20,000 bases of DNA, taken from IMG/VR virus record IMGVR_UViG_2851731845_000003; one strand, given 5' to 3'. The number at the start of each line of letters is the position of its first letter. Position 1 is the first letter of the stretch. A program made the translations under genes and the position numbers. The stretch is from an uncultured virus (IMG/VR IMGVR_UViG_2851731845_000003) (taxonomy: Duplodnaviria; Heunggongvirae; Uroviricota; Caudoviricetes). The notes below the pieces were generated by a model, which was given only the letters and a program-made list of their open reading frames with translations, had not been told where the DNA came from and searched no databases. Positions 2,697-18,800 of this stretch are shown here, piece by piece.

Positions 2697-2724
2697 TAAA
2701 AAAGGCCACCATCCGGCAGCTCTA
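2697..2724 (-). terminator. Putative terminator after the mom-like gene
   Basis: Minus strand GCTGCC-GGAT-GGTGGC then CTTTTTT. Confidence 0.55.
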
Positions 2725-3450
2725 CTTGTTCCCTCCCGGTTTTGGATATGGGAGAGGTTTAAACAGCTTCGTGTTGAGCCGTTTTCTTGCCCGCTTATTG
2801 AGAAACTTGATATAGCGGAACTGGGTAAATTTATGTGCTGTTGCACGGTGAAAATTAGCTTGAAGATGCAAGCCCCGCGCACCTGCTTTACTGGCCTTGG
2901 TTGTTAAAGCAATTTTGTGGTACCACTCGCCGTCTAATTCGTAGAACGTGCTTTGATGGCTACCCACATAATCAAAGTTGCTAGCCTGATACACCACCCC
3001 GAAGCGACCGCACCGCTCATCAGCAAATGTCTGCACCCACTCAACACCGGGGTGAAGCAATTTGATAGTTTTGAGTGCGTAACTGATCGCCCGTGATTCC
3101 GTATTCGTCAGCATGTCGTCGTGTACCCAGAGTCGGTTTAACTCCATGTATTGCCTGTTACCTGTTCCCTCAACGACTCGCCCTCCGCTGCTGGGGTTCA
3201 TTGCGTAACCCCATTGCATAACGCCAACTAGATCGCGCCCGGAGAAAATACCGAGGTGCAAATATGAGTTGTTCACTATGCGCTTGCTGTAATGAAAGTG
3301 GATAATAACGAGGCGAGCCAACCAGACGGGGATTGTGGCAACGTGCAGGTCTGAACATCCGTACCCCACGGTTACGCCGTCATAAACTACCGGAGCAGGC
3401 TTACCCACGGCGCGGGATGCGTTTTTGTAACTTAACTTTTTCATGGTCAT
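2722..3450 (-). CDS. mom: Mom-family adenine modification enzyme (methylcarbamoylase, GNAT fold)
   Basis: Close match to Mu Mom motifs [73 protein letters not shown]; start is 3450 or 3444. Confidence 0.95.
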
Positions 3451-4595: not shown

Positions 4596-5189
4596 CTAAG
4601 CCGCATAACTCATTAATTGACTGGCGGCGTTCTCTGCCTCGGATGGATGACTGAATGATTTACTGAGAATGAAAGTCCATAGAACATTCAGCACTGCTTT
4701 GTATAAATCGTTGAATTCCAACTCGTCCATTTTCGAGAATGAAATAGAGCGAGGTTCGCGCAGCGTTGAGCCGTCCGGTAGTTCGTATAGGTCATAATGT
4801 CCCGACTCAACGGTTACCCAACGACGGAAAGCGTGGAATGATTTTGCAGTGGATAAATTCGCAGTCCGTTTACCGGCCACCAGCGCCAGATAATCATCAG
4901 CTATTTCATGAAGTACGCCCTCATTCCCCACATAGGAAATAAGTTGGCTTACATAACCGCGCAGGAATTTAAGTTCGAATGGTGATATCGCCCCGCCCCT
5001 TGGCTCCCAATATTCAAAACCAAGGTTGAGCAGCGAGAAGAATTTACGATGAAACGGCGCATTACGCACACGTTTAAATTCGCCAGTGACAATAGTCCCC
5101 AGCTTGGTGTTTTTGACAAAATCCTCAGCATCCGGCGTGGCCGGTACCAAGATCCCACCTGTTGATTTGGTAAAACTATACTGTGCCAT
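4596..5189 (-). CDS. DUF1367 family protein
   Basis: RVRNAPFHRKFFSLLNLGFEYWEP and PRSISFSKMDELEF motifs. Confidence 0.85.
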   Translation of the reverse strand: MAQYSFTKSTGGILVPATPDAEDFVKNTKLGTIVTGEFKRVRNAPFHRKFFSLLNLGFEYWEPRGGAISPFELKFLRGYVSQLISYVGNEGVLHEIADDYLALVAGKRTANLSTAKSFHAFRRWVTVESGHYDLYELPDGSTLREPRSISFSKMDELEFNDLYKAVLNVLWTFILSKSFSHPSEAENAASQLMSYAA

Positions 5190-5257
5190 TTCCGCCCCCG
5201 GATATATGGCACAGCAGCACGATATTTAGGTTATCGGGTGTTCAATCCGACACTTAT

Positions 5258-5266
5258 ATAATAACA
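5258..5266 (-). promoter_or_regulatory. Putative extended -10 promoter for DUF1367-DUF1364-Q
   Basis: TGTTATTAT on the minus strand, about 70 nt upstream of ATG 5189. Confidence 0.45.
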
Positions 5267-5294
5267 GAATCAATCGAATTATTTTCAATAAGTT

Positions 5295-5714
5295 TTAACT
5301 GACATCAATACCAGTAAGATCTTTAATTTTCTTCTTAGCAAACCCTTCCGCAAGAGATTTAGTCACTGACATTAATGTTGATAATCCCTCATCTTTAAAG
5401 CCAGTCTTGATTGTCTGCCAAACTTCTTTCTGTCTTAAGTCAGCAATGAAATCATGGCCCCTAGCTGTTAGCCGAAGAGGAAGTAATACCCAGTCATATC
5501 CTTCATCATCAGAATTAGAATAAACGATACCAAAGCCTTGTCCACCATCAATACGGCAGATTAACCCTTGGTCGTCGAGTAATCTCATATGAAAAACGAA
5601 ATCTTCATCACACTTAAAACCTTTTAACTCTAACTCTTCAATATTAGTTTCAGGCTTTTCCGATGACTCAAAGGCATCAAGTAAATTACGCAAATACTCG
5701 TGATTAATTTTCAT
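5295..5714 (-). CDS. DUF2513-like winged-helix protein, AT-rich accessory gene
   Basis: Start ATG 5714 with AGGAG SD; LRLTARGHDFIADLR..VW motif. Confidence 0.75.
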   Translation of the reverse strand: MKINHEYLRNLLDAFESSEKPETNIEELELKGFKCDEDFVFHMRLLDDQGLICRIDGGQGFGIVYSNSDDEGYDWVLLPLRLTARGHDFIADLRQKEVWQTIKTGFKDEGLSTLMSVTKSLAEGFAKKKIKDLTGIDVS

Positions 5715-5742
5715 TAAATTGCTCCTGTGACATGTCATATCA

Positions 5743-6096
5743 CTATATATTTAATTTAGTCTCATGCCAGCCAAGAGTTTGCCAGCATTCACTTTCACCG
5801 ATAAATGCGCAACCAAGACTATCACCCGGTAGAGCATCACCACACTTACCACACCTGCGCCCCGCTTGCTGTTTGAGCAGCGCCTGCAGCTCGGCGTTAT
5901 CTTTTCGGATCAGCATAGTGATGTATTCGTCCATGTCGTACGGTTCACGCTGTGGGCGGCGTAGGGCACAGTTCTGCTGTAACATTTCTTTCTCTTGCTG
6001 GTCTATCGTCGCTATTAATTTATAGCTGCCACTATCACGCTCTTTCTGACGCTGTAGGCGTTTACGGGCCGCAGCCCGCTCTTTGGTATCAGTCAT
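5743..6096 (-). CDS. Hypothetical protein with C-terminal Cys cluster
   Basis: MTDTKERAAARKRLQRQ...CGKC..C..C; start overlaps the end of the adenine MTase. Confidence 0.75.
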   Translation of the reverse strand: MTDTKERAAARKRLQRQKERDSGSYKLIATIDQQEKEMLQQNCALRRPQREPYDMDEYITMLIRKDNAELQALLKQQAGRRCGKCGDALPGDSLGCAFIGESECWQTLGWHETKLNI

Positions 6097-6928
6097 GCGG
6101 ATGCTCCCGTTTATCAATGTTAGGGCTGAACCATAGGCATTCTATTTTGGTGACCGTGCCGCCCATACCAGCGCTGGCCTGTGCTGATTTTGTTTCTTTG
6201 CACCACCCGGCCAGCATGTCGTTATACAGTTCGCTGTCATAACCGGAAATGATCGACATACCTTTCAATTTTCTGACCGGCTCGAGTAATTCAATATGGT
6301 CTTGCTCGGTCATTTCATGGCGATATGAATAACCAGTTGGTTTCCAACGTTGGCGCGTTTCCGGCAAATATGGCGCATCAATGTAATTCAAAGTGCTGTC
6401 AGTATCATGATCCAGTAACACCTGAACGGCTGGGCGGTTCTCTATCAATACGCCAAGTAAACGCGAACCAATGGCGGCTAAATTATCAGGATAAGACGCC
6501 CATAACTGCTGGGCTGTCGAATATTCTCGTTTGGTATCAGTCCTAAACCCTGATTTATTGGCTGTGGCCGATGCTGAACTAAATCCCATTGTGGCCTTAA
6601 TTACCGTCCTGCGGGCCTGTTCCAATTCATCATCAATAGGCTCATAGGCAAAGTTAAACTCTTCACGGCTATATGGTGTCAGCACACATAAATCACGTAA
6701 ACGTATGTTCATTACTGGATCTTGCAGCACTCGGAATAGGTTCACAATTTCGCCATCAAGATCATTATAAACCTCAGCGTGGGAGCGGGCCTTTCTCAGT
6801 AGAACTGATGCCGCCCCCCCGAACGGCTCAACATAGCAACGGTGAGCAGGGAAAAAACTGGTTATCCATTTCGCTAATCGGAATTTTCCGCCGTGATATC
6901 TGATGACCGGATGTTTTATCTCTGTCAT
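6089..6928 (-). CDS. DNA adenine methyltransferase (D12/Dam class)
   Basis: YHGGK, YVEPFGGAASV, YND and DAPY motifs; ATG 6928 overlaps the C5-MTase stop (ATGA). Confidence 0.92.
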   Translation of the reverse strand: MTEIKHPVIRYHGGKFRLAKWITSFFPAHRCYVEPFGGAASVLLRKARSHAEVYNDLDGEIVNLFRVLQDPVMNIRLRDLCVLTPYSREEFNFAYEPIDDELEQARRTVIKATMGFSSASATANKSGFRTDTKREYSTAQQLWASYPDNLAAIGSRLLGVLIENRPAVQVLLDHDTDSTLNYIDAPYLPETRQRWKPTGYSYRHEMTEQDHIELLEPVRKLKGMSIISGYDSELYNDMLAGWCKETKSAQASAGMGGTVTKIECLWFSPNIDKREHPHD

Positions 6929-9120
6929 GCCGCCACCCTCCAGATACACAGCTCTGGCATATTCGCCCTTACCAGTGCCTCGGCAAAGGGAGGCGGTACT
7001 GCATTACCACACCTTGCCACCTGCTCAGATTTAGGCCAGATTGTGCCGTCAATATCCCGGTCAATAATGTAATCTGGCGGGAACCCGCTGGCGTTGTACA
7101 GCTCGCGGGCAATCAACATGCGCATGCATATATCAACGATGATGTATTCGCCCACAGATAGATATTGTGGTCGTGGCGCGGGGAATAAATGCCAGTCGTC
7201 CGGTAAATCGCTGAAATGATCCACCAGTCGTGCGCAGTTCCATGCGTTGTAGCGCTGCTTGTCGGTCAGTGGTTCGGCATCAAGATTGCTTTCTACCAAG
7301 CCAAAACGTTCTTTGGTTGTCACAGCATGTATCGGCTCTGATAAATCCACCGCGCCGCCAGTGCCGTAATACTTGGTCAGAAATGCGTTTACCAGTCCGA
7401 CATGATTACCGCCCGCGGTTAAAGTCGGTACCGGTTCGGTGATGGGTTTACCATCGCGACATGTACCACGCAGTTGTACCAGGTGAGATGTACAAAGCGC
7501 ATGGTGATCAACCGTGGTGATGGTGTGTAATGGCTCGTTAATATCGATGCCTGCACCGGTATAATTGCCGCCATAATGTTTTACCAGATGAGCGGCCACC
7601 ATTCCCATTGCATGACCATTACCACCGGGGCGAATCGATGTACCGGCCGTGATAGTCGATAATGGCTCATCACATTGTTGGCCTATAGCGCCGGTCCTAA
7701 ATTTGGTTATATGCGGTGCCAGTATTGCACTGGCTAACTGGCTTTTACCGCCCCCACCCGCCGTAACGGTACCCAGTGGAGTATTGATATCATTTGCCGT
7801 GCTGTTGCCGAACTGACGCACAACCACCGGCGCAGCGATAGCAAAACCATGTGTTCTAGTGATTGTTTGTAACGGGTCACGCAATGATTGCCCACGGAAA
7901 CAATCATATTTGGTTTTAGTGCTGGTGTGGTTGCACTTCACTGCATACGGCTCCAGCAACAAATGCTCAGCCTTGCTGGTGATAGTGGTTAGCGGCTGAT
8001 CTAGCGGATACTGCAGACGGTCGCCACCGAAACCGGTTTGGCCCAACCTCACAATAAATGGATCAGGGTTATCGATAACAAAGCGTTGCAGCCCTTTGAC
8101 GATGCGCCGCAAGGTATTATCAGCCAAATCCTTTTTGCGACCGAAAATAGAGCGTGTTGGCTGGCTCCAGTCGATACACTCGGCCGCCGTGCGCCAAGGT
8201 TGCAACATGCCAGAAAGCACATCTGCAGAGTTTGGTGCGCCGTGGCTTGGCTCTGGCCATACAACCGACTCGCCGTCACAACGCCCAACCACAAACAACC
8301 GCTTTCTGATAGTGGGTGTACCGTAATCACAGGCTTTTAGCTCCCGGTGATCCACGTTATACCCCAACCCCGAAACCAGTTTCACCGCCTCAGGACTATT
8401 GATATCTATCTTCAAGAATTCACATACTTCTGCTAGTGCCGGGTGATTGCCATCAATACCGGTACCTAGCATGCCAATAAACGCCTTGAACGTTTCACCT
8501 TTACGGGCTGGATCAGGTCGGTGATTACCCTCACTATCCGTTAACAATGGCCCCCAGCCGCGAAACTCTTCGACATTTTCCAGCATCAGAAAACGTGGGC
8601 GAACTGCCAGCGCCCAGCGTAATACCACCCAGGCTAAACCACGAATTTCTTTCTTAACTGGCGTGCCACCCTTAGCTTTGGAGAAATGGCGGCAATCAGG
8701 ACTGAACCAGCCAAGCAATACCGGCAGACCGCCGGTAGATATCAGCGGGTCGACACTGAAAATATCCTCAGGATAATGCAACGTTCGCGGGTGATTAATG
8801 GCATGCATCGCCATGGCTACCGGATTATGGTTCATCGCGATGTGTGGTTCATAGCCTAATGCTTGCTTGATTCCCTCGCAGCTCCCACCGCCACCAGCGA
8901 ACCCAACGACAACCAGACCATCCTGCAAATCAGGTCGTGCAACTGTAATTTCTTTGCGCCGCGCCCATGCATGAGCCGCCTTTTGAATGTTGCGCGGATC
9001 TTCCCGCGTCAAAAACATTTCGTTCATCTTGGCCAGTAGCTGCTGTTGCTCTGACTCACTCATTGGGTGAACAGGAATGACTGACGAGGCGCATTGCTGA
9101 ACTTCAGTAGGCCAGATCAT
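6925..9120 (-). CDS. DNA cytosine-5 methyltransferase with an expanded variable region
   Basis: FAGGGG (I), SPDC (IV), ENV (VI), RKRLF (VIII) and GNAV (X) motifs. Confidence 0.93.
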   Translation of the reverse strand: MIWPTEVQQCASSVIPVHPMSESEQQQLLAKMNEMFLTREDPRNIQKAAHAWARRKEITVARPDLQDGLVVVGFAGGGGSCEGIKQALGYEPHIAMNHNPVAMAMHAINHPRTLHYPEDIFSVDPLISTGGLPVLLGWFSPDCRHFSKAKGGTPVKKEIRGLAWVVLRWALAVRPRFLMLENVEEFRGWGPLLTDSEGNHRPDPARKGETFKAFIGMLGTGIDGNHPALAEVCEFLKIDINSPEAVKLVSGLGYNVDHRELKACDYGTPTIRKRLFVVGRCDGESVVWPEPSHGAPNSADVLSGMLQPWRTAAECIDWSQPTRSIFGRKKDLADNTLRRIVKGLQRFVIDNPDPFIVRLGQTGFGGDRLQYPLDQPLTTITSKAEHLLLEPYAVKCNHTSTKTKYDCFRGQSLRDPLQTITRTHGFAIAAPVVVRQFGNSTANDINTPLGTVTAGGGGKSQLASAILAPHITKFRTGAIGQQCDEPLSTITAGTSIRPGGNGHAMGMVAAHLVKHYGGNYTGAGIDINEPLHTITTVDHHALCTSHLVQLRGTCRDGKPITEPVPTLTAGGNHVGLVNAFLTKYYGTGGAVDLSEPIHAVTTKERFGLVESNLDAEPLTDKQRYNAWNCARLVDHFSDLPDDWHLFPAPRPQYLSVGEYIIVDICMRMLIARELYNASGFPPDYIIDRDIDGTIWPKSEQVARCGNAVPPPFAEALVRANMPELCIWRVAA

Positions 9121-9623
9121 TGCGCCCCCTCACGTAGTCTTGCTGCGAAATCAAGAATATTGGAAATCTCGCCTGTATCTGCCATTACACCAACGTCAAA
9201 AGCTTGTACGTGACGGTGCTGCGCAAATTTTTCAACACCCCCCGCCTCCACATCATTAAGAGCCAGAATGGTTGCAGGGACACTAATTACTTCGTATAGC
9301 GCCTCAAATGCATCTTCTTCATAGTCGCCACATGAAGAGATGCCATCTACCGTATTCAGATGCCCCCTGTTGTAACCGGCGTTATATACATGGACGCAGG
9401 CTTGTTGGAGTGCTGCGTTCTCGGCAACAATCACATTATATTTCCCCTGCCACTCCAAACACTCCCGCTCGTAGTGCTTTGCTGTGCGCCGGTTCTTATT
9501 AGCTGATGCCACCAACTCCGCTATACGGTCAGCGATGCCGTTTAACACCTCACTTTCACGTGGTTCCACTCTTTCCGCTGCTGAACGAATTGCAGCAATC
9601 ATGCCATCGGTTGATATATTCAT
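9117..9623 (-). CDS. Hypothetical coiled-coil protein (Ead/Ea22-like)
   Basis: AENAALQ coiled-coil and FAARLREG C-terminal patterns. Confidence 0.65.
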   Translation of the reverse strand: MNISTDGMIAAIRSAAERVEPRESEVLNGIADRIAELVASANKNRRTAKHYERECLEWQGKYNVIVAENAALQQACVHVYNAGYNRGHLNTVDGISSCGDYEEDAFEALYEVISVPATILALNDVEAGGVEKFAQHRHVQAFDVGVMADTGEISNILDFAARLREGAQ

Positions 9624-9871
9624 TTGGTCTCGCCTCTGTGGTCTCTGCGGTCACGCCAGTAATTTAAGCGCTCTTTAAAAAACTCTCGGTAATGCACCGG
9701 TACCCGTTCAATCGCTTCAAGTACATGAGCGCGGTTGGTCCTGCGCTCGTACAGGTTTTTGATTAAGCCGCTGGCTCTCAAATCAAGATTTAGCTTTTCT
9801 TGGTATTCCTGAGGCCAGAGGCAAATGTTGTACGGGAGTCCGGGCGGGAGATAATCCGATTGCCCGGTCAT
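9620..9871 (-). CDS. Hypothetical protein
   Basis: 83-aa ORF with GGGGAG SD; stop overlaps the next start. Confidence 0.7.
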   Translation of the reverse strand: MTGQSDYLPPGLPYNICLWPQEYQEKLNLDLRASGLIKNLYERRTNRAHVLEAIERVPVHYREFFKERLNYWRDRRDHRGETK

Positions 9872-9875
9872 GGTA

Positions 9876-10256
9876 TTAACTCCCCATGCCTACCGTGCTC
9901 ATCAGTTGATTTATCCGAGATACTCGCAAGCAGTACGCCAGCTCCTTGTCATCAAATGGCATTCTGGCGGGCTTGGTTCGGGGTTCGCTTTTGTTGCGTT
10001 TTACTTGCGTGTCAGAGAATCGGAAAAAATCCTCTGAGATACTGTTGAGGGTGTATTGAGTCTTTCGACCATTGCGGCGGGTAATGTCTGCGTGGGGTGA
10101 TCGAACCATACCCTGTACTCGGTAGCGCAAAACGCTAATCGGCATTTCAGCATTAGGAAATTTTAAAGTAATAGCCTCGATAATCTGGCTGTAGTTCATG
10201 CTTTGGCCCAGCATAACCGCTGCCAATTCACGGGTAGTTAGTTCACGTTTTTTCAT
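9876..10256 (-). CDS. Hypothetical protein, possibly winged-helix
   Basis: 126-aa ORF after dnaB, preceded by AGAGGCAAGACC. Confidence 0.75.
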   Translation of the reverse strand: MKKRELTTRELAAVMLGQSMNYSQIIEAITLKFPNAEMPISVLRYRVQGMVRSPHADITRRNGRKTQYTLNSISEDFFRFSDTQVKRNKSEPRTKPARMPFDDKELAYCLRVSRINQLMSTVGMGS

Positions 10257-10300
10257 GGTCTTGCCTCTTTTTTGGTTACTTAAACGCTGGTCAGGCGCGG

Positions 10301-12717: not shown

Positions 12718-12938
12718 ACCCCCAGCGCTTCCGCTATTTGCCGACAGGCAGACTGATAATCGTCAGCTGATAGGTTCATCAGGCGCAGGTCTGCTTTCTT
12801 CTGCTCGTACTGTTCCCACACGCTATATGCGGCAACCTGACGCCCTGCAAAAATTGGCTCTATGTCAGCTATGCTTGCCGGTTGCCCGTTCAGCCGGAAC
12901 CCGTTGCAGTAGGTAATTTTATCGATAGATGTAAGCAT
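12714..12938 (-). CDS. Hypothetical protein
   Basis: 74-aa ORF preceded by AGAGGCAAGACCA; stop overlaps the initiator start. Confidence 0.75.
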   Translation of the reverse strand: MLTSIDKITYCNGFRLNGQPASIADIEPIFAGRQVAAYSVWEQYEQKKADLRLMNLSADDYQSACRQIAEALGV

Positions 12939-12954
12939 TGGTCTTGCCTCTGTT

Positions 12955-13419
12955 TTATACGGTGGTCAGCCGGTGGTGTTGTGGTCTGATTGCGTGAAGT
13001 GCCGCAACAGCGCCCGATATTCTTTGTGACATGTCACAGCCATCTAATAGAACAGCGCTAATTGCTGCGGCAAACTCTCTGCTGGCAATCGAAACCAAAT
13101 AATTAACGGTCTCGCCATTTACTCTGGCCCGCCGTTCTGCTGGGAGCGCCGCTTTAAGTACCGGTGATAATTCCAAGACCTTTCGCATTGATGCTTTTGA
13201 ATCCCCGCGCAACCAACGGAATAACTGCTGCCGGTTGTTGTTGATAGACTTCCAATCAGCGTTGCCCTCCTCGTCTTCAATGGGAGTGAGGCGTACTGAA
13301 TCCGTACTGATATTAAGCAAGAAAAACATTCTGCTGATCTCGATAGCTACATGCTCCTGCCCCCGTTCTGCTGCCCACGCCTGTACTTCAGCTTTAAGGG
13401 CGTTAACTTGTTGTTCCAC
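12955..13419 (-). CDS. CII-equivalent, YdaT family
   Basis: GTG start, AGGAG SD, follows cro; WAAERGQEHVAIEI..NRQQLFRWL pattern; TTGATT-N6-AATCA sites nearby. Confidence 0.8.
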   Translation of the reverse strand: MEQQVNALKAEVQAWAAERGQEHVAIEISRMFFLLNISTDSVRLTPIEDEEGNADWKSINNNRQQLFRWLRGDSKASMRKVLELSPVLKAALPAERRARVNGETVNYLVSIASREFAAAISAVLLDGCDMSQRISGAVAALHAIRPQHHRLTTV

Positions 13420-13691: not shown

Positions 13692-13758
13692 AAGGTAACA
13701 AAAGGTACATAACAATGCAAACACTTTTCACCACACTATCGCGTAACATTGGTTACAT
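13692..13758. promoter_or_regulatory. OR region: pR and operators
   Basis: pR on minus strand TTGCAT(13720-15)-17-TACCTT(13697-92); operators AGGTAACAAAAGGTACAT 13693-13710 and GCGTAACATTGGTTACAT 13741-13758. Confidence 0.8.
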
Positions 13759-14419
13759 GAAAACTGAAATGAATGACCGCATCCGTATTCGCAGACTGCA
13801 ACTGGATCTCACTCAAGTCCAATTAGCCAAGGCTATTGGAGTGAGTCGAGTATCAGTTACGAAATGGGAGTCAGGGATAACCAAACCAGATGGAGAGAAT
13901 CTTCACCGACTGGCGCAAGTACTTTCATGTACGCCAGAATGGTTACTCTATGGTACCGGGGATTTACGCCAGGTTGATGATACAAAAATCAAGCCTCTCA
14001 CCGCCGTGCCTAATGCCATACCTGTTATTTCATCAGTTCAAGCAGGCACTTGGACTGATACATATTCAGCGGCCCGAATTTCTGATGTTCTTAGATGGTG
14101 TACTACCACAGTGAAGGTTTCTGAAAACGCTTTTGCCTTAGATGTTCGTGGTGAGTCGATGACAAACCCCAATGGGTCACCTTCTATACCTGAAGGTTCT
14201 ACAGTCATCGTCGAGCCTAACTATGGTTCTATTGAAGATTTATACGGCAAGATAGTGGTGGCCATTATTGATGGTAGTTCCGAGGCCACAATTAAAAAGC
14301 TAGTCGTCGATGGACCTAATAAATATCTCATGCCATTAAACCCTAACTTTAGACCGATCGAAATCAACGGCAATTGCCGTATTCTCGGTAGAGTAGTACA
14401 GGTCACCCAAGACCTGTAA
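13757..14419 (+). CDS. cI: CI repressor (HTH + S24 peptidase)
   Basis: HTH LTQVQLAKAIGVSRVSVTKWE; A-G cleavage site VQAG; catalytic GESM and TIKKL; likely start ATG 13757. Confidence 0.95.
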   Translation: MKTEMNDRIRIRRLQLDLTQVQLAKAIGVSRVSVTKWESGITKPDGENLHRLAQVLSCTPEWLLYGTGDLRQVDDTKIKPLTAVPNAIPVISSVQAGTWTDTYSAARISDVLRWCTTTVKVSENAFALDVRGESMTNPNGSPSIPEGSTVIVEPNYGSIEDLYGKIVVAIIDGSSEATIKKLVVDGPNKYLMPLNPNFRPIEINGNCRILGRVVQVTQDL

Positions 14420-14424
14420 TCAAT

Positions 14425-14449
14425 AGCCCATCACCTCGGTGGGTTTTCT
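14425..14449 (+). terminator. Terminator after cI
   Basis: GCCCATC-ACCTC-GGTGGGT then TTTCTT. Confidence 0.65.
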
Positions 14450-14460
14450 TACGCCCTTAA

Positions 14461-14514
14461 ATGTAACTTATGGAACATCTATCTATTGACATGGTAGGTA
14501 ACTATAGGTACATT
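14461..14514 (+). promoter_or_regulatory. pL promoter with two OL operators
   Basis: TTGACA(14486-91)-17-TACATT(14509-14); operators ATGTAACTTATGGAACAT 14461-78 and AGGTAACTATAGGTACAT 14496-14513. Confidence 0.88.
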
Positions 14515-14600
14515 CACGATATCAACACGGCACAGCAGCCGATAAGCAGTTTAGGTTTAGTACGTTCTGGCAGCCGGGAAGACGGCAAAAGAGGAAGGTT

Positions 14601-14753
14601 ATGAAAGCAACTAAAAAGAAAACGAGTAAATTCCAGATCCAATATCGCTACTGTGGAATGTGGGCTAACGGAAATACTTACTCAACGCGCAAAGAAGCTG
14701 ATGATTACGCACGTAATACTGGCCGTGATTATCAAGTAGTCAAAGTACGGTAA
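14601..14753 (+). CDS. Small basic hypothetical protein (50 aa), first pL gene
   Basis: Below the ORF-track cutoff; SD GAGGAAGG; MKATKKKTSKFQIQYRYCGMWANGNTYSTRKEADDYARNTGRDYQVVKVR. Confidence 0.7.
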   Translation: MKATKKKTSKFQIQYRYCGMWANGNTYSTRKEADDYARNTGRDYQVVKVR

Positions 14754-14924
14754 CAACAGAATTTGGGTTGTTGCATTGGAGGAGAACCCCGCGCCAAGGC
14801 TCGGCATGATTACCACAGTGCAGCAGCCCAAACCAATAACGTAGCCACGACGGGAAAGTGTGGTGAGGCAAGACCAAAGATCTGACCCGCTGGCCCGGCG
14901 TAATGGGCACCAAATTACAGACGT

Positions 14925-15042
14925 AAAAAAACCCACCTAAGTGGGCTTCTTTACCCCGGGTCACCGACCAAAGTTAACCGGGAAGCTAACGGGGACCAAC
15001 CCGTTAACAGAGGCAAGACCAACGGCTTACGCCATCAATCTT
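14925..15042 (-). ncRNA. Putative ~118-nt sRNA with UUGGUC loops, complementary to the repeated RBS motif
   Basis: Extended -10 TGATATACT (15057-49); 5' stem with GUAA tetraloop; two UUGGUC-loop hairpins; terminator GCCCAC-TTAG-GTGGG plus U7. Confidence 0.65.
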
Positions 15043-15066
15043 AAAAACAGTATATCAGGAGTTGCT

Positions 15067-15402
15067 ATGACAGCACTACAGATAACCACCCAGCTATACA
15101 TCCATGTAAATCCGCATTCAACAATGAAAGCTAACCGCTTTATTGTGAGTACCTGTGACATGTCACAATCAACACCAGCATATGCGTTACTTGAAACCCG
15201 CGAAATCACTATCGCTTTCGACGAACCCGATCCATTTGAAATCATCAGTAAGCAGGTTGATTCACTACGCGCTCAAAAAGAGCGGCTGGCGGCTGAATCA
15301 TATCGGCATCAGTTGCTAATTGATGATCAGATTCAGGCATTGCTATGCATCGAGCACAGTACTCCATCGAACGTATCTGATGATACCGAAATTCCTTTTT
15401 AA
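15067..15402 (+). CDS. Hypothetical protein (111 aa)
   Basis: CAGGAG SD before ATG 15067; ends in an acidic DDTEIPF tail. Confidence 0.75.
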   Translation: MTALQITTQLYIHVNPHSTMKANRFIVSTCDMSQSTPAYALLETREITIAFDEPDPFEIISKQVDSLRAQKERLAAESYRHQLLIDDQIQALLCIEHSTPSNVSDDTEIPF

Positions 15403-15457
15403 TTAGTCATACATCAAAGACCAAGATCCGTTTAAAAACCAAAGAGGCAAGACCAAC

Positions 15458-17656
15458 ATGACTGTATTTATTTGTTTATTCGAGCCGAAAAAAGCGGCTC
15501 TCAAAAATGGGGCTATACCACTGGTTATAGCTCTGGAAGCCATAAATAAGAAAATGGCATCCGCACTGGCCATCGGGAAATTATGGGAAGCCTACCCCGC
15601 TGCCGGTGATAACTTTGCTGATCCGAAAATCTGTGAGGATACTGTCGGGCAACCGCGCCCTGCTGTGGGTGATTTCGATGAGCAGTTCGCACAGGATAAT
15701 ACCTTTGATGGCAAAGTATGGACGCCAAATACCGTGGCATCGCCAGAGGATGAGGATGATAACGACGGCGACGAACAAGGCGATGATTCTGGCTTGGTGA
15801 ACTACGCCAAGTTGGGCATTGATGTCAAAGTTGGCAAGATCCTAATGTATGGCTTGCGTGACATTGGTACACACGAACTATCACTAGTGTATGACCTGAT
15901 TAACGACGACGAGGGTGATGCTGGGCTGCGTTCAATTATAACGGCGTTGGCTGGTATACCGGCTGTAGGCGCAATGTATCAGGAGTCGGTCAAAGAACTG
16001 GTCGACGCCATTAATGTGAAGTTTCCTAAGACCCCTCAATTTCCTGAAGTACAGAAGTTTGCCCAAAAATGGGTTGATGAACCCAATAAGCGGGACGAGT
16101 TAACTGGAACGAAGAAAGTTACCCGTATAAACACACCCACGCCTGATGCGCCAATTAAACGCGGCTTTGACCACACCTATAAAACGCTTGATCTCGAAGT
16201 CGCCCTCGCCTTGGTACCCACTGTTTTGAACTGTTGGGAAATCTACTCAGCAGAAATGAGGCAGGCAAAAGAGCTGATGGATAGCAATGATGATGCCTGG
16301 CGCAAGTGGTCTACCGAATTGCGCGTTCGCAGCGATGCGTTGTCTATTCCGCGTGAAACCATCTTTGAGATGATCCGCGCGGGTAAAGAAAAACCTATCT
16401 TCCTAACCGATGCCGCAGCCAGGAAAGAATTTATCTCACAATATTTAGCCGTTAAAGGCCCACAGCCCGCAGTTAAAAATCTAGGCGACGGCAAGTTCTC
16501 TATTGATGGTCTGGTCGGTGGTGAACAGCCAGCGGCAAACAGTGAAACAAAACTGGCATTGGTTGCCAATTCTGGGCCAGAAACTGAAACAAAACCGCCA
16601 ATTGTTGCAACAGAACAGGAAAACCCTTCACAGGAACCTATCTCCGATAATGCCGCTCAACAGGCTAAAGAGACATTGGATAAGTTGGGTTACAGCGTTT
16701 ATGCCTCAACTGATGAGAAGCCAGCAGAGATAATTGAGACGGCACAGCAAAATGACGTTGCTACCGTAGCGGTTACGGCTGATGAGTTCCAACACCGCGC
16801 CGGGTTGATTGAGCAAGAGATTGCGCAGAAATCCCCTGCGGAGCAAGAAAACCTGCATATCTGGAAATCAGTACAACGCACAGATCCACGCTTTACCAAA
16901 CCTGTAGAGGGTGCGGGATATGTAGCTACAAGCATTAACGCTGAATATATGTTTATGCGAGCCACCGAAGTATTCGGCCCAGTTGGTGAGGGTTGGGGCT
17001 ATACCATTCTTGAAGAAAAGATGCTTTCAGGCGCGCCAATGTCCGAGGCTATTTACGACGATAACAAGAAATATGTTGGTAACCGGCTTATTCGTGATGC
17101 CGATGGCACATTGATATGCGAACAAAATCACTCGATCAAAATTCAATTCTGGTACTCAGTCGAGGGTGATGTGCGTGGCGAGATCGAAAGTTACGGAGCC
17201 ACCCCTTACATGTATAAAACCAATAAAGGAATTAAGGCAGATAGCGAGGTAATCAAAAAGAGCCTCACTGACGCCATTAAGAAAGCATTATCTATGCTGG
17301 GCTTTAGCGCCGACGTATGGCTCGGCATGCACGATAACCCCGAGTATAAAGCAGAAAATGACATTGAGTTTGCTATCAAGAACGCCAGTGAAAAAGCTGG
17401 TGACTCAGTTCGTCTGCGCAAAGAACTGGATGAGAAGTTAACCAAAGTAGGCAATACCATTACGAGCGCCGTCACCACCAACGAAGTGAACAAGGTTTAT
17501 AGCACCATTGCGCGTGAAGTTGATGTACATCGCAAAGATGCCGAAGCCAAAGCCGATCACGAACACGCCAATTACCTCAAAACCCGCCTGCTTGCGTTAC
17601 ACCGCTTAACTGAAAAACGGGTTGCTGAACTTACCGCACAGGAGCCGACATTATGA
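15458..17656 (+). CDS. RecE-like N-terminal region fused to a Rad52/Sak-like annealing domain
   Basis: C-terminus TDPRFTK..INAEYMFMRATEVFGPVGEGWGY..KKSLTDAIKKALSMLGFSADV; N-terminus and LDLEVALAL block resemble prophage exoVIII N-regions. Confidence 0.7.
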   Translation: MTVFICLFEPKKAALKNGAIPLVIALEAINKKMASALAIGKLWEAYPAAGDNFADPKICEDTVGQPRPAVGDFDEQFAQDNTFDGKVWTPNTVASPEDEDDNDGDEQGDDSGLVNYAKLGIDVKVGKILMYGLRDIGTHELSLVYDLINDDEGDAGLRSIITALAGIPAVGAMYQESVKELVDAINVKFPKTPQFPEVQKFAQKWVDEPNKRDELTGTKKVTRINTPTPDAPIKRGFDHTYKTLDLEVALALVPTVLNCWEIYSAEMRQAKELMDSNDDAWRKWSTELRVRSDALSIPRETIFEMIRAGKEKPIFLTDAAARKEFISQYLAVKGPQPAVKNLGDGKFSIDGLVGGEQPAANSETKLALVANSGPETETKPPIVATEQENPSQEPISDNAAQQAKETLDKLGYSVYASTDEKPAEIIETAQQNDVATVAVTADEFQHRAGLIEQEIAQKSPAEQENLHIWKSVQRTDPRFTKPVEGAGYVATSINAEYMFMRATEVFGPVGEGWGYTILEEKMLSGAPMSEAIYDDNKKYVGNRLIRDADGTLICEQNHSIKIQFWYSVEGDVRGEIESYGATPYMYKTNKGIKADSEVIKKSLTDAIKKALSMLGFSADVWLGMHDNPEYKAENDIEFAIKNASEKAGDSVRLRKELDEKLTKVGNTITSAVTTNEVNKVYSTIAREVDVHRKDAEAKADHEHANYLKTRLLALHRLTEKRVAELTAQEPTL

Positions 17657-18153: not shown

Positions 18154-18197
18154 TTTATCCAGCCCCGGACCAACGGGGCATTATTGAGGCAAGACCA

Positions 18198-18371
18198 ATG
18201 CTAAGAAAGACACAAAAGCGGCACGAACTGGCCTATATAACACTCCCAGACGGAAGAACGGGAACCATCCACACCGATCGCCGCTGTGATGTTCACTATG
18301 ATTTTCCAACTGATGTGCGCATTAGTAGCACACCACCGCAGCCAACCGCTGAAAAGGAGGCCAGGCAATGA
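18198..18371 (+). CDS. 57-aa protein, possible divergent CsrA/RsmA fold
   Basis: Below the ORF-track cutoff; MLRKTQKRHELAYITLPDGRTGTIHTDRRCDVHYDFPTDVRISSTPPQPTAEKEARQ; SD GAGG. Confidence 0.65.
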   Translation: MLRKTQKRHELAYITLPDGRTGTIHTDRRCDVHYDFPTDVRISSTPPQPTAEKEARQ

Positions 18372-18593: not shown

Positions 18594-18800
18594 ATGCAGC
18601 AATGGCAACCAGGCAAGCGTCTATTGACCGACTTCGATATTAAGATCGGTAAATTATCAGCCAGCGTACGAAAGCAGCAACTCACCGACCAAGATATACA
18701 GCGGGCCTGTTCTGCGACCGACAGAGCAATAACCCAAATGATACAGGGGCAAGACCATGAAAAACGACCACGACATAATCACCAAAGAGGAGATGATTGA
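18594..18800 (+). CDS. Hypothetical protein
   Basis: 68-aa ORF with AGGGA SD, overlaps the xis start. Confidence 0.6.
   Translation: MQQWQPGKRLLTDFDIKIGKLSASVRKQQLTDQDIQRACSATDRAITQMIQGQDHEKRPRHNHQRGDD

Follow-up and report, generated by a model that had tools for sequence, protein, structure and literature searches.

The c4 RNA of phages P1 and P7 acts on a single operon, icd-ant, from whose transcript it is itself processed. The CI RNA of phage P4 is an immunity factor that is cut out of the leader of the early operon, where two complementary sites are found (seqB with seqA/seqC), and it acts by premature transcription termination. RegA of phage T4 is a protein which shuts off many early genes at their translation-initiation regions and recognises a loose AU-rich consensus. 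In passages of a 2025 review of phage small RNAs (sRNAs), differences in c4 specificity are described as underlying heteroimmunity, P22 sar and lambda OOP appear as short terminator-bearing antisense RNAs overlapping an opposite-strand start region or gene end, and the sRNAs listed (24B_1, sar, OOP, aQ, DicF, AgvB, AsxR, IsrK and c4) include nothing of the kind reported below (PMC12197685). Northern blots and primer extension have revealed IsrB-1 and IsrB-2, identical 88/94-nt sRNAs of the Salmonella prophages Gifsy-2 and Gifsy-1, which are antisense between sbcA and STM1010 (PMC2330248). An Escherichia coli RNA once called IsrB (AzuCR) is unrelated (PMC12612679). Here we describe a predicted sRNA gene in a 20,000-nt stretch of DNA (the window) from an uncultured virus of the Caudoviricetes (IMG/VR IMGVR_UViG_2851731845_000003). 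The whole stretch is a ZF40-like lambdoid prophage with two divergent early operons.

The RNA carries the complement of a short cassette located on the ribosome-binding sites of six early genes. It is probably a trans-acting RNA directed against multiple ribosome-binding sites that is also antisense in cis to the leader of the PL-like operon. A trans-acting base-pairing sRNA with a regulon is expected to have a conserved and accessible seed and conserved complementary sites in several mRNAs, with covariation of the two across relatives, and these features were observed here.

The predicted RNA gene and its fold

The predicted sRNA is about 118 nt long and is located on the minus strand at 15042-14925, where the 5' end was placed from the -10 box and the 3' end from the U-run. 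An extended -10 element, TGaTATACT, can be read in the sequence at 15057-15049 (minus); the -35 element is weak and, because of this, a simple promoter scan did not return the -10 element. No CI-operator-like repeat was found at the sRNA promoter. Stem-loop 1 (15043-15014, minus) consists of 13 pairs, five of which are G.U, and the UUGGUC half of the anti-cassette UUGGUCUUGCCUCU (15022-15009, minus) is buried in its 3' arm. The anti-cassette is composed of an anti-Shine-Dalgarno sequence and the complement of the spacer, and is the exact complement of AGAGGCAAGACCAA. Stem-loop 2 (15008-14985, minus) presents the loop UUGGUC at 14999-14994, which is invariant among relatives, and stem-loop 3 (14982-14955, minus) presents the loop CUUUGGUCGGUGAC, which holds UUUGGUC at 14971-14966 and has a core common to Salmonella IsrB. 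The RNA ends in a Rho-independent terminator, GCCCAC-UUAG-GUGGG followed by U7 (14954-14925, minus), whose hairpin is also terminator-like when read on the plus strand.

The minimum free energy of the 141-nt stretch was found to be -60.3 kcal/mol as compared with -39.2 +/- 3.4 kcal/mol for shuffled sequences (z = -6.23), and none of 200 shuffles was as good. The fold is about 19 kcal/mol better on the minus strand (-54.0 kcal/mol) than on the plus strand (-35.3 kcal/mol). The UGGUC half of the anti-cassette is predicted to be paired in stem-loop 1, with a mean probability of being unpaired of 0.04-0.24 in the three main types of this RNA (see below) and 0.59 in the single sequence of the AUG type. 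The nnnCCUC half (the 3' 7 nt, which hold the specificity triplet) is predicted to be mostly unpaired, with means of 0.46-0.88 depending on the type.

The cassette and its six predicted target genes

The 14-mer and its near copies with up to three mismatches occur nine times in the window, where shuffled sequences gave a mean of 1.68 and a maximum of 5, and none of 200 shuffles reached nine. The cassette has the layout GAGG-CAA-GACCA-(A)UG and immediately precedes the start codon. Six copies abut start codons (15458+, 18198+, 18757+, 12938-, 10256- and 9623-), two more are found on the plus strand opposite or beside the sRNA gene (15009-15022 and 14864-14877), and a copy at 2115 with three mismatches is probably due to chance. 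A first-pass annotation of this DNA had proposed a minus-strand structured RNA gene with a -10 box, three hairpins and a U7 terminator, a segment of which would complement a motif on the ribosome-binding sites of six early genes in both early operons. All of these elements are indeed present, the anti-cassette is the exact complement of the 14-mer, and the six copies at gene starts belong to both divergent operons.

On the plus strand, the cassette and ATG were found at the 732-aa exonuclease gene (15443-15460), which is followed by an overlapping Gam-like gene, at a 57-aa gene (18185-18200), which has a small hairpin with a GGACCAA loop 6 nt upstream, and, as GGGGCAAGACCA, at the excisionase gene (18745-18759), which overlaps int. 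The minus-strand targets are a 74-aa gene (12936-12951), a 126-aa gene (10254-10268) and, with the cassette GAGGCGAGACCA, a 168-aa gene (9621-9637) which heads the methyltransferase block. The excisionase and 168-aa cassettes each contain an A>G change that keeps a G.U pair. When each of 29 genes, from -45 to +20, was co-folded with the sRNA, the six cassette genes were ranked 1-6, with energy differences on co-folding (ddG) of -13.8 to -32.5 kcal/mol against -0.2 to -9.5 kcal/mol for the others. The best of the 29 was the 74-aa gene (-32.5), and the 168-aa, exonuclease, 126-aa, excisionase and 57-aa genes gave -19.2, -18.3, -18.2, -16.6 and -13.8, respectively. The cofold ddG was used instead of duplexfold on long sequences, which gave large energies for every gene and was uninformative.

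Each cassette gene in the window heads a block of overlapping or abutting genes. These blocks are 74 aa-replication initiator-DnaB (with 4-nt overlaps), 126 aa-theta, 168 aa-731-aa methyltransferase-Dam methyltransferase, exonuclease-Gam-like, 57 aa-51 aa and xis-int. Since the pairing covers both the Shine-Dalgarno sequence and the start codon, ribosome entry should be blocked, and with six start sites blocked and translation coupled within the blocks, most early functions could be silenced as whole blocks.

The start region of the 74-aa gene (12915-13000, minus) is paralogous over about 55 nt to the plus strand of the sRNA gene, and the two have in common a GACCA-loop hairpin, the cassette and A(T/C)G(G)CTTAC. 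This similarity suggests that the targets may have arisen by duplication of the antisense of the sRNA gene, or the reverse. In addition, GACC was observed within 30 nt upstream in all six window targets, frequently within the loop of a small hairpin (for instance CUGACCA), and these upstream GACCA loops could form kissing interactions with the UUGGUC loops of the sRNA.

Matching RNA and cassette types among relatives

Relatives were gathered by pattern scans and by a search with the exonuclease protein. The UGGUC..CCUY pattern scan gave at least 120 loci, with 61 distinct RNA sequences among the matches listed. A scan of viral contigs with a 14-mer loop pattern gave 120 loci, of which about 18 were real and the rest chance, and two of the four loci from a scan of genome contigs were also chance matches.

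Four RNA types can be distinguished by the central triplet of UGGUC-nnn-CCUC, which is UUG (the window and Pectobacterium phage ZF40), UUU, AUA or AUG, and in each phage the cassette ahead of the start codon of the genes, GAGG-nnn-GACCA, is the one that fits its RNA. The sample comprised 71 loci of at least 9 kb with distinct contexts, in which exact cassettes were counted if they lay outside the sRNA gene and had a start codon at a distance of 0-3 nt. The 31 loci with an RNA of type UUG hold 98 cognate cassettes, the 31 of type UUU hold 80 and the 9 of type AUA hold 28, with none of another type in any of the three groups. The totals are therefore 206 cognate and 0 non-cognate cassettes, with at least one cognate cassette at each locus. 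The single phage record of type AUG has six exact copies of GAGGCATGACCA as against none of the reversed control; five of them are outside the sRNA gene and ATG comes next in all five. The first three types were also found through the exonuclease-based search, which is free of assumptions on the RNA. Six gene cassettes were found in ZF40 and three in phage vB_SmeS_BUCT708 (BUCT708). The one exonuclease relative without the sRNA (L147) has no repeated 10-mer and no cassette, and no GACCA cassette precedes the genes of Gifsy-2, whose RNA lacks the anti-cassette.

Conservation at 99, 102 and 28 distinct target sites is limited to the 12-nt cassette, with none on the flanks. Among 186 distinct sites, 146 are perfect and 40 have one mismatch; the pair is kept as G.U in 22 of these 40, including the two deviant targets of the window (168 aa and xis). 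The energies of 13-mer duplexes range from -20.5 to -22.9 kcal/mol for cognate and from -12 to -19 kcal/mol for non-cognate combinations, with the exception of the AUG RNA on a UAU cassette, which reaches -20.9 kcal/mol through wobble pairing.

A second member of the sRNA family, of type AUA (UGGUCAUACCUC), was found in another prophage of the genome from which the window comes (G000:C1:1651624-1651746, plus strand; L293). In that prophage, four to five genes carry GAGGTATGACCA-ATG and none carries the cassette of the window. Three pairs of contigs sharing a name prefix also carry one UUG and one AUA member each, as this genome does. Co-residence is only a hint, because unlike types would be expected in about 60% of cases by chance and the strains may be kin.

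Conservation of the RNA structure

A total of 66 distinct sequences were aligned, a covariance model was built, and the 66 were re-aligned to the model before pairs were counted. This alignment replaced one from MAFFT and RNAalifold, which missed stem-loop 2 because its arms were misaligned. The model scores the window sRNA at 117.2 bits. Three helices were observed to be kept in the 66 relatives, with 93.4% of 1369 cells paired as compared with 73.7% after shuffling. The covariation score was 0.576 against 0.204 for shuffled alignments, a value reached by none of 500 shuffles, and slid controls gave at most 0.112. All eight pairs of stem-loop 2 have changed on both sides and 97.7% of its cells are paired; in stem-loop 3 (helix 2), four of the six pairs have changed on both sides with 82.1% paired, and 97.6% are paired in the terminator (helix 3). 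G.U pairs form 162 of the 1369 cells and would be mismatches on the other strand, and the structure therefore fits the minus strand only. Variants in the 5' arm of stem-loop 1 keep their pairing through changes from G.U to A-U or G-C, and the anti-cassette is the most conserved segment of the RNA, with invariant columns. A -10 hexamer with at least five of six matches is present in all 66 relatives (TATACT in 33, TATAAT in 18, TAAAAT in 14 and TAGAAT in 1), located 22-41 nt upstream of the anti-cassette, and the -35 elements are weak.

The sRNA was found in the isolated phages ZF40 and BUCT708, and a further relative is a Rouxiella silvae contig. In a sample of the bacterial family with one genome per genus, 8 of 151 genomes contain a member. 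Among complete E. coli genomes, the UUU-type RNA is present, unannotated, in 10 of 5426, and no match to the window stretch or to the AUA-type RNA was found in the E. coli genomes. Hypothetical coding sequences have been deposited across the sRNA gene on the opposite strand in ZF40 (4919-5407; L129) and BUCT708 (9066-9179; L276), and these are probably open reading frames (ORFs) called in error or N-terminal extensions that are not conserved. Three copies of the sRNA gene were found in one genome of the same family (G174; C1:1979627, 2034470 and 2902495; L290-L292), with UGGUC, UGAUC and UUGUC and with few cassettes nearby, and these copies may be decaying elements.

Alternative explanations

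The sRNA gene is located between the PL-like promoter and the gene for a 111-aa protein (phrog_2479; 15067-15402, plus strand), on the strand opposite to both. The PL-like promoter (TTGACA-17-TACATT, 14486-14514, plus strand) is flanked by CI-operator-like GTAAC..GGTACA repeats, and its transcript runs antisense through the sRNA gene. The RNA could thus be a regulator in cis only, acting on the PL leader or on the 111-aa gene in the manner of P22 sar or lambda OOP, and the other cassette matches could be a by-product of the start-region copy that it overlaps on the plus strand. We regard this as unlikely. The sRNA is fully antisense to the PL leader, and Gifsy IsrB has the same position and orientation yet no cassette system; both facts favour an action in cis. 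Among 61 distinct genes, the opposite-strand copy of the cassette is followed by ATG in 32, and in 11 of them it heads an ORF of 100-126 codons; in 21, however, the ORF has 4-39 codons, and in 29 there is no start codon. The N-terminal extensions of the 111-aa protein that begin at this copy are not conserved whereas the protein from an internal Met is, and therefore the copy is not a conserved ribosome-binding site of the 111-aa gene. An action in cis also leaves unexplained the 12-nt cassette at 3-8 dispersed genes which switches type in concert, and a duplex of 12-14 bp with an energy of -21 to -24 kcal/mol and an exposed seed would pair in trans anyway.

It is much less probable that the cassette is read by another factor, either a RegA-like phage translational regulator protein or a ribosome-level enhancer, with the sRNA being unrelated or a decoy. 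Conservation does extend over the spacer GACCA, unlike in ordinary Shine-Dalgarno sites, the conserved 111-aa protein always adjoins the sRNA gene, and the similarity to rsmX is weak (22.2 bits, where the gathering score is 56). To serve as a decoy, the sRNA would have to carry the sense sequence, but it carries the antisense, and it is the only element that covaries with the cassette triplet. Csr/Rsm sponges carry GGA motifs while the loops of the sRNA are UUGGUC, and the 111-aa protein matched no RNA-binding fold. More remote still is the idea that recombination between mosaic phages has kept the cassettes as linkers at module boundaries, without regulatory meaning, and that the sRNA gene merely overlaps one of them. 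The cassettes are found at the heads of gene blocks and the loci are visibly mosaic, with segments inserted between PL and the sRNA gene in some relatives and not in others. Against this idea, the cassette always has the sense orientation and is fixed at 0-2 nt from the start codon, and 12 nt leaves little length for homologous exchange. Within a phage the cassettes also switch type in concert, and the switches are matched by the RNA, of which the anti-cassette is the most conserved part. Each of these three explanations leaves the concerted, type-specific match between the RNA and dispersed start sites unexplained.

Several points weigh against a trans-acting RNA directed at ribosome-binding sites. 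Half of the anti-cassette is buried in stem-loop 1 in the predicted fold. The types are clades, so that there were perhaps three or four evolutionary switches and not 71 independent events, and as the scan fixed the flanks UGGUC..CCUY, the triplet alone could vary. The pair counts come from an alignment fitted to the model and from sequences that are kin. The variants UGAUC and UUGUC of genome G174 have no matching trans cassette within 20 kb. As the complement of the RNA is itself a copy of the cassette, heading an ORF of 100-126 codons in 11 of 61 cases, the covariation could arise from this cis overlap together with another force that homogenises cassettes. The upstream GACCA partner is mostly absent in AUA-type targets and is therefore not a general feature. 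Finally, the analysis demonstrates the sequence, structure, conservation, covariation and predicted pairing energies of what looks like a real RNA gene with its own constitutive-looking promoter, and from these we infer its expression, repression as the direction of the effect, the timing and a sponge role of the leader; the detection of the homologous IsrB in Salmonella lysogens gives partial support to the first three.

Prophage setting

The S24-type CI repressor is encoded at 13715-14419 (plus strand), and a terminator-like hairpin is found 3' of cI at about 14427-14450. Operator-like repeats, GTAAC-N5/6-GGTACA, are located beside the PR/PRM and PL promoters (13693-13760 and 14463-14512). 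The PR-like operon on the minus strand contains cro, a CII-like YdaT protein, the 74-aa gene, the replication initiator, DnaB, a DNA polymerase III theta homologue, methyltransferases, a Q-like protein, lysis genes and terS. Among the products of this operon (2722-3450, 6089-9120 and 9620-9871, minus) are a Mom-family protein, a Dam-type methyltransferase, the 731-aa protein with a C5-methylase domain and the theta homologue. The PL-like operon for recombination and excision, on the plus strand, contains a 50-aa ORF, the 111-aa protein, the 732-aa exonuclease (phrog_2489), the Gam-like Gp157, small ORFs, excisionase and integrase.

No Pfam family was found for the 111-aa protein, its PHROG has no assigned function and its Atlas clusters are unnamed. 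An AlphaFold2 model (mean predicted confidence, pLDDT, 82) has three strands and a 40-residue helix, and it had no match in the PDB at E-values up to 0.001. The perfect palindrome TGTGACATGTCACA occurs three times in the window (15156-15165, 13027-13036 and 5728-5737), and its 10-mer recurs four to six times in several related loci. It was considered as an operator near the sRNA promoter and rejected, as three copies against 0.71 expected, a number reached in 6 of 200 shuffles, is not significant in the window.

The PL leader contains an orphan copy of the cassette without a start codon, TGAGGCAAGACCAA (14864-14877, plus strand), which lies past the sRNA terminator at a distance of 48 nt. A second copy 32-58 nt beyond the sRNA terminator was observed in 43 of 74 distinct contexts, and a decoy, a second pairing site and a read-through isoform are candidate roles for it. 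The orphan copy in the window is followed by CTGACCCGCTGGCCCGGCGTAATGGGC (together 14864-14911, plus strand), and the 20-mer GACCCGCTGGCCCGGCGTAA is identical in a distant relative (L144). At this position other relatives have a CTGACAGCCGGGAAAGACCGGC hairpin, a candidate nutL/boxB-like site of the PL leader.

Proposed mode of action

The trans-acting RNA would be made constitutively while CI keeps PL silent, and its anti-cassette would pair with the cassette of any early mRNA, whether leaky or incoming, and keep ribosomes from binding; the UUGGUC loops may first kiss the GACCA loops upstream of several targets. The sRNA is a perfect antisense of the PL leader, so that after induction strong transcription from PL should both hinder its synthesis and titrate it. 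Convergent transcription from PL and the complementary leader would then remove the sRNA, and the early blocks would be translated. Interference and titration by PL may together produce a threshold switch.

A bolder proposal, which we consider doubtful at present, is that the sRNA and its cassette provide immunity with an RNA layer that is programmable and type-specific, with at least four largely orthogonal specificities. Related prophages of unlike type could then reside in one cell without silencing each other (the genome of the window carries a UUG and an AUA element). A resident prophage would prevent translation of the replication, recombination and excision blocks of incoming phages of its own type, regardless of their CI specificity, and the PL leader, with its full complement and second cassette, would serve as an induction-triggered sponge that lifts the block.

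If these proposals are correct, the start regions of about six early-gene blocks have been standardised in this phage group, and one small RNA gates replication, recombination and excision post-transcriptionally. The RNA/cassette pair would have diversified into specificity classes, like repressor/operator pairs, with a predicted specificity of three nucleotides. An RNA layer would be added to lambdoid immunity, the long-orphan IsrB family of Salmonella would gain a function, and mis-annotated ORFs in phages such as ZF40 and BUCT708 would be explained. The types would also provide a natural set of orthogonal 12-nt translational switches in a family that includes isolated phages (ZF40 and vB_SmeS_BUCT708).

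Comparison with known systems

At gathering thresholds no Rfam family matches in the window. In a permissive scan, the Rfam model of isrB (RF01386) was aligned end to end (model positions 1-87) with the 3' 87 nt of the sRNA at 14926-15012 (minus), with a score of 34.8 bits, which is 0.2 bit below the threshold of 35 (E = 2.6e-4). A congener of the same genus (genome G002) scores 38.4 bits, above the cut-off, and 2 of 61 genomes were matched. Our own covariance model finds the IsrB of Gifsy and Citrobacter at 32-35 bits, which supports the homology in the reverse direction. The first-pass annotation had not recognised this RNA as a described family, but a described relative does exist; nor had it remarked that the RNA is fully antisense to the PL leader, which gives a role in cis as well. 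Its proposed gene structure and complementarity stand, and the check it had suggested, covariation between the loops and the ribosome-binding-site motif in homologues, was positive, with each of the four types matching its own cassette alone.

The sRNA and IsrB have in common a homologous 3' domain, consisting of the CUUUGGUCGG loop hairpin and the terminator. Both are antisense within the PL-side operon of a lambdoid prophage, beside an exonuclease gene. In the Gifsy-2 record, IsrB is flanked by STM1009 (exonuclease VIII-like) and STM1010 and lies on the opposite strand, and the window sRNA agrees with it in position and orientation, being located upstream of the 111-aa and 732-aa exonuclease genes on the opposite strand. 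Of the window sRNA, stem-loops 2 and 3 and the terminator are all that the isrB model spans; the 5' hairpin and the anti-cassette are additional here and absent from IsrB. The sizes also differ, with about 88-94 nt and two 5' ends for IsrB (Padalon-Brauch 2008) and about 118 nt predicted for the window sRNA. No target or mechanism of IsrB was found in the papers retrieved on IsrB with Gifsy or prophages, and searches for IsrB, ZF40 small RNA, the cassette strings, and prophage sRNA with Shine-Dalgarno returned no description of the present system.

The other described systems resemble this one in part. The PL leader here contains the full complement of the RNA and a second cassette copy 48 nt away, which is reminiscent of the complementary leader sites of P4 CI RNA; P4 CI and its targets are encoded on one strand, and no sequence or family match to it was found here. 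P22 sar and lambda OOP differ in having a single cis target each, without a shared cassette or specificity types. T4 RegA is similar in logic only, as here an RNA would recognise an exact cassette by Watson-Crick pairing. The closest parallel is the c4 RNA of P1 and P7, which is structured and blocks translation of a phage mRNA through loops complementary to its ribosome-binding region. The window sRNA has the corresponding trait, a 14-nt exact complement of a ribosome-binding region together with UUGGUC loops, and the four RNA/cassette types parallel the heteroimmunity of c4. This is a likeness in working and not in membership, as the Rfam C4 model has no match at E-values up to 10 on 14500-15500. 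The present RNA differs from c4 in its separate antisense promoter, in its six or more targets in two operons and in the standard cassette that these carry. On these comparisons, the predicted system is a new form of antisense-RNA control in phages, nearest in its working to c4 of P1 and P7.

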